This document shows, one piece after another, positions 24,001 through 27,000 of a DNA stretch of 45,354 nucleotides (within the stretch, counting starts at the first letter, position 1; every line of letters begins with the position of its first letter). The DNA comes from Candidatus Micrarchaeaceae archaeon (lineage in GTDB: Archaea; Micrarchaeota; Micrarchaeia; Micrarchaeales; CABMGC01), in the NCBI GenBank assembly GCA_038877255.1, contig JAVYWZ010000004.1:1-45354 (forward strand), read 5' to 3'. The position numbers were made by a program.

Positions 24001-27000
24001 TCTATTTCCATTTTGTGCGCCCTTTATGAAGAAATACAACTAAAATAAGAGCAAAGAATAAATATAAGCTTGCATTAAGGAATATCGAGAAAAAGTGGTG
24101 GTAAGAAAATAATATAAAGCCGCAAGCGGCAATTTAAAGAGTGCAGGGATGGCGGAGCTTGGTCAAACGCGACAGACTCAAGATCTGTTGGCTTAAGGCC
24201 TGCGGGAGTTCAATGCTTGAACAAATCTCCCTCCCTGCATAACTTAATAGCTTGCGTCGTATATTCTGTGCTTAATTGTTGGGAAAGGTCGATAAAATGG
24301 CTAAAAGAATCATCAAAAAGAAGTCAACTAGCGCAAGACGCACAATTCGTTCAGAAAAAAAGGCTGGCGCAAAGCCATCAGTGGCAAAGCGCAGGTCAAA
24401 GTCAGCCGTAGGAAATTCAATAATAAATAAGATGAAAAGGGCAAAGCTCAAGGACAAAGTGCTCCTTGACATGCCGCACTATCCTCAAACCGAGGATTTC
24501 ACCAGTGCAGCTGCCTGTGCGATGATGGTGTTAAAGTCGCTGAATAAAAACTTCAGGATGAGGCGCGAGAACGAATATAGCATATGGCAAGAAGCAGTCA
24601 GTGGCAGCGTCTGGTACGGTTCAAAGTATGGCCTTGCATACGCGCTTGCAAAGCGAGGCGCAGATGTTGCGATAGTAAGCAATACGCAAGACGAGGGCTA
24701 CGAAAGGCGCATGGCTGTCTATGAGAACGTAAACCTTGATGCACTCGATGCTTCTTTCAACGAAATAAAGCAGAAATCGCAGAACATGGGCATAGAAGAG
24801 GAATACGTGCCAACGGTAAATGTTCTTTCGATAAAGAAGGCGCTCTCTTCTAATCACATTCCCATAGTGCTTATAGATGTAAAAACCATTGACTCTTATT
24901 TAGATTCAATGCCGCACTGGGTAGTTGTGAAAGGCTATGACAAGGACAACTTTTACATAAGCGATCCTTACTCTGATAGCACGATAACGCTTGATTTTCA
25001 ATCATTCAAGAACGCGCTAGGCTTCGAGAATAACTTTCACATGATCCTTGTGAGAAATAAATGATGCTGCTTTTTTTGTAGCGCACTAATTTTCAAGCTT
25101 GCAAGCTAACTTCCAGTGTCCCAGACGTCAGCGGAAACGTTCTCCGGTTTTACCCCTAATGAGTAAAGCGCCATCTTTACAGCCTGTACAAAAGCAGGAG
25201 GTCCGCATATATAGCACATTCTTTCAAGCACGTCAGGAACAAGTTTGTTTATCATTATATTGTCAATGTGGCCCGTAAGCCCTGCCCAATTGTCGCCTTG
25301 CTGCGGCCTTGTAACAGTTACAAATGTTTCCAGGTCTATCTGTGTCGAAAGCTCCTGTAGCTCTGCCTTCCTTATTATCTCGCTAGGATATTTTACGCTG
25401 TATATGAGCTTAACATTATTCTTTGTGCCTAGCGCCTTTATGTGCCTTAGCATTGACATGAATGGCGCTATGCCTGTGCCTCCAGCGAGATAAAGCACCT
25501 TATCTTTTTTGTATGGGTCAAACTTGAATTGGCCATATGGCCCTTTTACAATAAACTCATCTCCTATTTTTGCCTCAACAAAGTGTGATGTATGTGCTGC
25601 TGCTGTGCCTTGATGTGGCTGTTTAACTGCATAAAGCTCAAGCCTTGTAGATCCTGGATCTGAAGCCACTGAGAACGCCCTGGCAACATGCGGTTTATTG
25701 TTAGAATCTATTCCAGAAATCATCACGAACATGCCAGGCTCAAAAGGGAGAGGCTTATTATCTTCCGGATCAAACTCGAGCGTCAATACCTCTGGAGTTT
25801 CGTCAATTTTGTAAGCAAGCCTATATTTTTTCTCTATTACTGATTCAGTAGTTGTCATGCGCACACTTTCCTGCTGCATAATTATTCAAAAACAAGCGGG
25901 TTTAAGTAGGTTACTTTTTAAGCAGCGCTGATTCTTCAACAATTCTTTCGAGTCTGTCCACATTTTTAATTACATCCTTGAGTTTTGCGTTTATGCCGTA
26001 TCCTAGATCATAACCCCGGTCTGTTCTTATATGTGTAGGCTGTAAAACATTGTAGTTCAAAGACAGTGTCCTGAGCGTCATTATCAACGTCTTTCTTGTG
26101 AATTTCTTGCCAAGTGAGTAATAAAGTTCACGTGTCGTTCTAGGAGATTTTGACAGTAATAGCTTTAATACAGCATAATTAGGCCTGCTGAGTAGCTTTC
26201 TTAGTAACCAAATTTCATCGTTTTCTCTCTGTTTTGGCATGATTACTATATGTTGCTAAAATTTATAAAGGCAACATATGTATCTGCCTGCCGCATTTTG
26301 CCCCTTTGGAAGCATGCCATAGCGAAAACAATAAAAACTTTTCATTGTAATAATATACACTATGTTATACTTTAATAAATATTTGAATAATTTAAGTAAA
26401 ATCAGTAGCATCGTAAAGAAGCCAAAGCAGGGGCAGGATGACGCGCGCTGCGATCTTGGCTTCTTAATTGCAGCTGCAGAAGGCAATCCTGTGGCCGAGC
26501 TAGGGGGTCTAATCCCAAGGGCTGTACTTAAAACAGGCAACGCGTACGCTTATGTAATAGGCTATGGTCTTGAGCCTATTAACAAGTACGAGCTTAAAGA
26601 AGCGGGCATTGCAAAATTGCATGTCATTAATGAACTTGCCATCGGGAGCGAAGAAATATCAATGCGGCTTTTTGAAAAAGCGAAAGATATTGCATTTAAA
26701 GCGCTGTCTGAAAAGCTCGGCGCGCAACGCGCCTCTTTTATTTCATATCTGATTGCACATGATACTGTAGGCTACGGCGCTGTAAGCATATTGCTCGAAG
26801 ACAGGTCAAAACTCGAGGAGATAGAAATAAACTCACCAACAGCGCCGATCTTAGTACATCATAGTGAATATGGTTTGTGCCATACAAATCTGTCTTTCGC
26901 AAGCGCTTCGCAGTTTAAGCGCGTTGTAAACAAGATGGCTTACGAAGCAGAGAAGGAGCTTAACGACAGTTCGCCCATAATTGACGTGCAAATAGGCAAC

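Follow-up and report, generated by a model that had tools for sequence, protein, structure and literature searches.

A DUF3335 protein with serine in place of the catalytic cysteine, encoded behind tRNA-Leu in Micrarchaeales, is a probable pseudopeptidase

Introduction

Among the closest known systems to the protein reported here are the C39 peptidase domains, such as those of LahT (6mpz), PCAT1, ComA, B. anthracis 3erv and PeiR, with which it shares the core fold and 14–18% identity. Unlike these peptidases, it has neither a catalytic cysteine nor a fusion to an ABC transporter (in all the loci read it is a free-standing ORF and not the N-terminal domain of such a transporter), and it differs further in having a helical insert and a basic tail. 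C39-like domains that lack the cysteine and bind cargo are a precedent for such a protein. The closest functional analogy is the CLD of HlyB-type transporters, a C39 fold with Tyr, Leu or Asn for the Cys, which is part of a transporter and, as described in the accessible sections of PMC8277102, binds its cargo on the face opposite to the cleft. Unlike the CLD, the protein studied here is free-standing, archaeal and of separate descent.

Papain-like families with serine in place of the cysteine have already been catalogued. In menin, APC5867/2HLY, DUF2145, DUF2272 and DUF3750, all of them different from DUF3335, a conserved Ser stands beside the other two active-site residues, and the accessible text of the catalogue (PMC10318531) calls their activity speculative; the same text mentions no Ser clade in DUF3335 or in Micrarchaeota. 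Nor did we find a description of the present clade in the literature on DUF3335, on C39 proteins of Micrarchaeota and on pseudoproteases, within a coverage outside which most subscription journals lie. The clade is a real and apparently undescribed Ser variant within DUF3335.

In DUF3335 itself (PF11814), the Cys-type members have, as seen in the model of one of them, the same order of secondary-structure elements, helical insert included, and have in common with this clade the Gln, W97, G112, P206-x-W208 and D/N-P. They differ in reading F[TS]-C-G-[PA], where this clade reads FT-S-[SA]-A and shows repeated loss of the His. A RimK-like ATP-grasp gene is the neighbour in 61 of 80 Cys-type loci and one inspected example is fused to a GNAT domain, whereas this clade is stand-alone. 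No RimK match was obtained in the source genome (G000, 92% complete) and no GNAT domain in the 255-aa protein, and the literature searches retrieved no paper joining papain-like, GNAT, ATP-grasp and RimK, the terms ‘CD lyase’ and ‘P210’ giving only unrelated matches.

Results

The window analysed, a stretch of 45,354 nucleotides from a Candidatus Micrarchaeaceae archaeon, encodes at 24297–25064 (+) a 255-aa DUF3335/C39-like papain-fold protein, a probable pseudopeptidase, recognised from its ORF, Pfam match, model and fold matches; the gene is single copy in the source genome. The protein matches PF11814 with E 6.5e-25 and 88.3 bits (curated cut-off, 25 bits), and the orthologues with Gly/Gln at the catalytic positions and those of the basal clade also score above this cut-off. 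Matches to GUCD1-like and C39 models were weaker, NCBIfam gave no match, the ESM Atlas matches fell only in DUF3335/C39/GUCD1 clusters, and a sequence search against solved structures returned nothing below E 0.1. An earlier note on this DNA had assigned a papain/C39-like fold, and this is borne out by Foldseek and VIA-align matches of the predicted structure (pLDDT 89), in which the nucleophile helix precedes the strands that bear the His and the Asp, as in clan CA: LahT 6mpz (Z 14.5, rmsd 2.4, 134 aligned), B. anthracis 3erv (Z 13.8, rmsd 3.1, 154 aligned), the 22oc ‘CD lyase’ (Z 13.8, rmsd 3.2, 157 aligned), PeiR (Z 12.7, rmsd 3.0, 146 aligned) and the HlyB CLD 3zua (Z 10.8, rmsd 2.6, 123 aligned), with phytochelatin synthase also among the top matches.

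The motif around the nucleophile position is QTEDFT-S70-AAAC. Gln64 (24486–24488, +) occupies the oxyanion-hole position and is missing in 9/9 sequences of the basal clade. Ser70 (AGT; 24504–24506, +) is at the position of the catalytic cysteine and opens the predicted helix 70–82, just as Cys16 opens the predicted helix 16–28 of a Cys-type relative; it aligns with the Cys column of 80/80 Cys-type relatives, a set chosen by a motif that contains the Cys, in agreement with the register proposed in the earlier note. His207 (24915–24917, +) is at the general-base position and Asp223 (24963–24965, +) at the third position of the triad. Between them and Ser70 lies the helical insert (about residues 128–165; 24678–24791, +), with predicted helices at 135–142 and 147–163. 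An active C39/DUF3335 cysteine peptidase is not what the clade encodes, as Cys is present at the helix start in 0 of 145 copies (Ser 139, Gly 6); Cys74, one turn later, was rejected as a shifted nucleophile because it is not conserved (C123/S20/A2). Separate DUF3335 lineages also have Ser or Thr at the nucleophile position (P0216, P0224, P0246, P0256, P0179 and P0190; P0216 and P0224, of 380–400 aa, keep the His and some others do not), so that the swap of the Cys is not unique to this order.

The earlier note had described Gln64, Ser70, His207 and Asp223 as invariant and had proposed a Ser-His-Asp enzyme in a cysteine-protease fold. Its motif QxxxFT-S is indeed found in 118 of the best 120 database matches (one of them the protein itself), the other two reading QxxxVT-S, and in the alignment of these 120 sequences Ser70, Gln64 and Asp223 are present in 120 and His207 in 119. 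Order-wide the invariance breaks down. The counts cover 145 copies in 144 genomes (143 published matches, G323 and a second copy in G121), three paralogues and one false match having been removed: position 70 is Ser in 139 and Gly in 6, position 207 is His in 134, Gln in 9, Val in 1 and Arg in 1, position 64 is Gln in 143, Lys in 1 and a gap in 1, and only Asp223 is present in 145/145, including the copies without His. Family, fold, register of Ser70 and order-wide presence of the gene thus stand, and the invariance of the triad does not; since that invariance had been measured in close relatives only, the triad reading is weakened across the order. The two copies in G121 (L084 and L152) share 61% identity (119/194) and may represent a duplication or bin contamination.

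Another residue takes the place of His207 in 11 of 145 copies, across all three families, and of Ser70 in 6; 13 copies lack one or the other or both, the double losses being those of G003, G023, G031 and G085, and 132 retain both (131 with all four residues visible, and one that is cut before Gln64). In a tree built from 144 copies, six changes are counted for His and two for Ser, and none for 14 of the 199 columns. Support is high for the loss clades that span several genomes (99.9, 100 and 100) and low for the backbone near them (0–70), and four His events are a safe minimum: one to Val, one to Arg, one to Gln in family f1 and one to Gln in family f3. Three His losses are seen in single genomes (G042, G059 and G077), only that of G042 being echoed by a database protein (P0142). 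Most instructive is the basal clade: all nine of its sequences keep the Ser and carry Val for His, and one of these genomes, G001, has the same upstream tRNA at the locus. All 139 Ser70 codons are AGC or AGT, one base away from the TGY of Cys.

The genes without Ser or His are full length and intact. For pairs lacking the residues, dN/dS was 0.053/2.7 (G023–G031), 0.024/1.55 (G015–G081) and 0.071/1.69 (G018–G004), in these pairwise comparisons with dS near saturation; intact pairs gave similar values of 0.041/2.05, 0.049/1.42 and 0.026/0.90, and the pair G059–G061 was higher (0.149/0.77). Judging from these rates, copies without Ser or His remain under purifying selection. A compensating DUF3335 paralogue is absent in 12 of the 13 loss cases, G001 included, and we rejected rescue by a Cys-type paralogue, which exists among the loss lineages in G004 only. 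As controls, Cys-type relatives keep the His in 80/80 sequences, with a third residue that varies (D 63, N 13, E 4), and the His is present in all 36 Cys-bearing rows among the 43 outgroup rows of the tree. In the same loci, RtcB motifs (64/64, 59/59 and 48/48), and those of the CCA enzyme (10/10), AK6 (39/39) and Trm1 (68/68), all of which we take to be catalytic, show no non-conservative change where covered, which indicates that assembly noise is not the cause of the Ser and His losses.

A triad enzyme would be expected to hold Ser and His wherever the gene is retained under selection, and 13 of 145 copies, as well as 9/9 basal sequences without His, do not conform. We therefore regard as unlikely the reading in which the protein truly works as a Ser-His-Asp hydrolase or acyltransferase across most of the order, with a few lineages that lost the activity and kept a second, structural role. 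The 132 copies with Ser and His speak for it, as do the slow evolution of Asp223, Gln64 and Ser70 (rate ranks 8, 13 and 16 among 199 columns; His207 is at 54), which places these positions under real constraint, and the start of the helix by Ser70 as by Cys16; moreover, the accessible text of PMC10318531 reports residual activity for Cys-to-Ser congopain and bleomycin hydrolase and lists the five Ser-type papain-like families as possible enzymes. Such an enzyme would however have to have lost its activity at least five times independently, although the gene is a single-copy core gene on which selection has not been relaxed, the Asp is invariant even where the His is gone, and Cys-type relatives never lose the His. 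In the basal clade, moreover, the Ser is kept without His or Gln, so its conservation is independent of the triad. The alternative that the earlier note had held in reserve, a catalytically dead binding protein, is the one that we now prefer in view of repeated Ser and His loss under purifying selection.

A further reading is an enzyme with other chemistry, in which Ser70 and His207 would be non-essential and residues such as E133, E156 and D223 would act on a small molecule or RNA. E156 and D223 are present in 145/145 copies and kept in the basal clade too, and C39-like folds that host non-peptidase reactions (the 22oc ‘CD lyase’, phytochelatin synthase) are among the top matches. Nevertheless, E133 is found in only 138/145, the columns that never change are mostly Gly, Pro, Ala or hydrophobic and look structural, and no geometry or substrate indicates a second active site; we give this reading little credence.

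Twelve positions are retained by the orthologues and the basal clade alike and are rare in 20 Cys-type relatives: S70, A72, G103, Y115, E133, G134, A140, N146, L147, E156, K180 and Y214. Half of them (E133, G134, A140, N146, L147 and E156) fall on the helical insert, which may form a new binding surface or lid. A Lys/Arg-rich N-terminal tail (about residues 1–50; 24297–24446, +) is modelled with low confidence (pLDDT 56–61 over residues 1–40). Some orthologues have their basic tail at the C-terminus instead, and the combined net charge of the tails, at either end, is at least +4 in 144 of 145 copies, which suggests contact with nucleic acid. Replacement of a histone was rejected, as histone matches occur in 59/59 other genomes of the order and in G000. 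Genomes of the order mostly have two or three histone-fold genes, with low scores, and a match was seen in 1 of 22 genomes of f9, 0 of 5 of f13 and 0 of 2 of f8.

Searches recovered the gene from 145 of 151 genomes of the order (82 of the 83 of high quality) and from none of the 172 genomes that represent other families in a phylum sample, among which the Pfam model gave one weak partial match. The order is named here after the earlier note and the source labels of close matches. These presence tallies, like those for histones and for the Cys-rich neighbour described below, include the unpublished genomes G027 and/or G068, both excluded from the residue and neighbourhood counts. Five of the six genomes without the gene were checked: in G128 the start of the gene follows the tRNA and then the contig ends, and the remaining four yielded no CAA tRNA either (one with no match, two with other anticodons, one not parsed), which fits assembly gaps. 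The restriction to the order claimed earlier is accordingly upheld, and the gene is a clean marker of the order; the identity of 57–83% given with that claim holds for the top matches, and across the order identity falls to 35%.

Directly upstream of the gene, a tRNA match at 24143–24239 (+), missed by ARAGORN, corresponds to a tRNA-Leu(CAA) whose T-loop is interrupted by an intron of about 11 nt (approximately 24213–24223, register uncertain). In 143 of 145 loci the gene is immediately preceded by a tRNA match on its own strand, with the anticodon CAA in 141; the two remaining loci are truncated by the end of the contig. In the 139 loci that could be parsed, the tRNA has an intron of variable length in 129 and none in 10; the tRNA and the first in-frame start are separated by a median of 19 nt (range 3–68), an SD-like motif with an in-frame start is present in 97, and a T5 run follows the tRNA in only six. 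The profile over these loci is A-rich and then T/A-rich at −37 to −25, a TATA-like match precedes the tRNA in 110, and in our locus a BRE/TATA-like element at 24103–24119 (+) would be the probable promoter of a transcript comprising tRNA and gene. From this arrangement, tRNA-Leu and the gene are probably co-transcribed. With regard to a possible insertion at the 3′ end of the tRNA, tRNA-Leu(CAA) was called once among the loci of 11 outside genomes, with no DUF3335 gene behind it, and no duplicate of the tRNA end was found within the window.

On the other side of the tRNA, rtcB (22572–24011, −; assigned from Pfam and the locus survey) is a divergent neighbour whose synteny is at the level of the family, outside the conserved unit. 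The earlier note had reported this neighbourhood, which holds in family f1, where rtcB adjoins and diverges in 64 of 70 loci, and nowhere else (0 of 75, with flanks of 1.5–6 kb). Of the 145 loci, 70 have Trm1 in the vicinity and 19 the CCA enzyme. The protein might be devoted to the splicing or ligation of tRNA, as a cofactor that partners RtcB, archease or the splicing endonuclease, as its place behind a mostly intron-bearing tRNA, these neighbours, and the richness of ARMAN-2 in non-canonical tRNA introns, T-loop introns among them (accessible text of PMC3239211), would suggest. We find this improbable: rtcB is divergent and does not adjoin outside f1, the gene is kept at the ten loci with an intronless tRNA, and in one proteome the protein is far more abundant than RtcB (see below). 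The 3′ ends of tRNA genes are common insertion sites, which explains the position without a functional tie.

Other genes of the surroundings were also recorded. An ORF at 16392–16964 (+), about 5.6 kb from rtcB, matches NCBIfam PRK00407 below the cut-off (E 2.5e-19) and is presumably an archease. In 82 of 145 loci (e.g. L122:2574–2960) the next gene downstream is convergent and encodes a Cys-rich protein of about 130 aa without Pfam match, which is known from this order and one further family; we rejected it as a partner because of its convergent orientation, its presence in that other family and the lack of a match in G000 to the queries used. At 26362–31942 (+) a type II/IV secretion ATPase heads a series of small pilin-like and membrane ORFs; together they are probably a cluster for a type IV pilus.

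An orthologue is represented in a published proteome, that of strain ARM-1, as BCS91353.1 (P0125). In the accessible data of PMC11329633 it has 11 peptides, 70% coverage and an iBAQ of 1.84e9, to be compared, among selected rows, with 6.4e9 for L24, 5.7e9 for L23, 2.2e9 for L24e, 0.54e9 for RtcB and 0.086e9 for Trm1; it is thus about 3.4 times as abundant as RtcB in this one proteome. BCS91353.1 keeps Q, S, H and D and has no basic tail, so that at least one species can dispense with the tail. The accessible supplements of PMC8975820 contain no entry for C39, DUF3335, tRNA-Leu or RtcB.

Discussion

We propose that the gene encodes an abundant cytoplasmic housekeeping pseudopeptidase, specific to the order, that acts by binding a partner; this is the explanation that we consider probable. 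A Cys-type DUF3335 gene may have entered the ancestor of the order and settled directly behind tRNA-Leu, the Cys would have become Ser by one base (TGY to AGY), and transcription from the tRNA promoter could have provided steady, high expression. In the comparison of orthologues, the fold and most of the cleft are under strong selection, and the Ser is swapped to Gly and the His to Gln, Val or Arg with the gene kept. The ancestral cleft, together with the helical insert peculiar to the order, may hold a peptide or protein partner, and Ser70 presumably serves as a small residue at the start of the helix and not as a nucleophile. The Lys/Arg tail could add affinity for nucleic acid, most plausibly for RNA of the translation or tRNA-processing machinery. 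The non-catalytic part of this proposal is a firmer claim than the link to RNA, which, even if the protein is a pseudopeptidase, we hold as possible and tentative.

What would such a protein mean for these archaea? Probably it is an unexplained core protein of the order and not a new serine enzyme. A near-universal and abundantly expressed gene that was not found in the sister orders points to an unknown core function of strongly reduced symbiont archaea, and the fixed unit of tRNA-Leu plus gene suggests that a foreign gene was brought under a tRNA promoter and domesticated. The orthologues also form a natural allelic series, from which it can be seen that a Ser-His-Asp set seemingly invariant among close relatives can mislead, and with which one could ask directly whether Ser-type papain folds are enzymes. 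If most members did use Ser70-His207-Asp223 on a native substrate after all, the protein would be a natural serine enzyme of the genome core in a papain fold, with dead variants arising repeatedly; the Cys, Ser, Gly/Gln and Val types are a ready series for asking whether clan CA can switch its nucleophile.

Stand-alone archaeal genes for Cys-type DUF3335 proteins were also observed, at L154, L156, L158 and L161, with neighbours that we take to be GcvH-like carriers, FAD sulfide oxidoreductases or TauE; the Cys paralogue of G004 (L036) is presumably beside suf-like genes. The stand-alone archaeal Cys-type proteins possibly have a sulfur-relay or lipoyl-related role.
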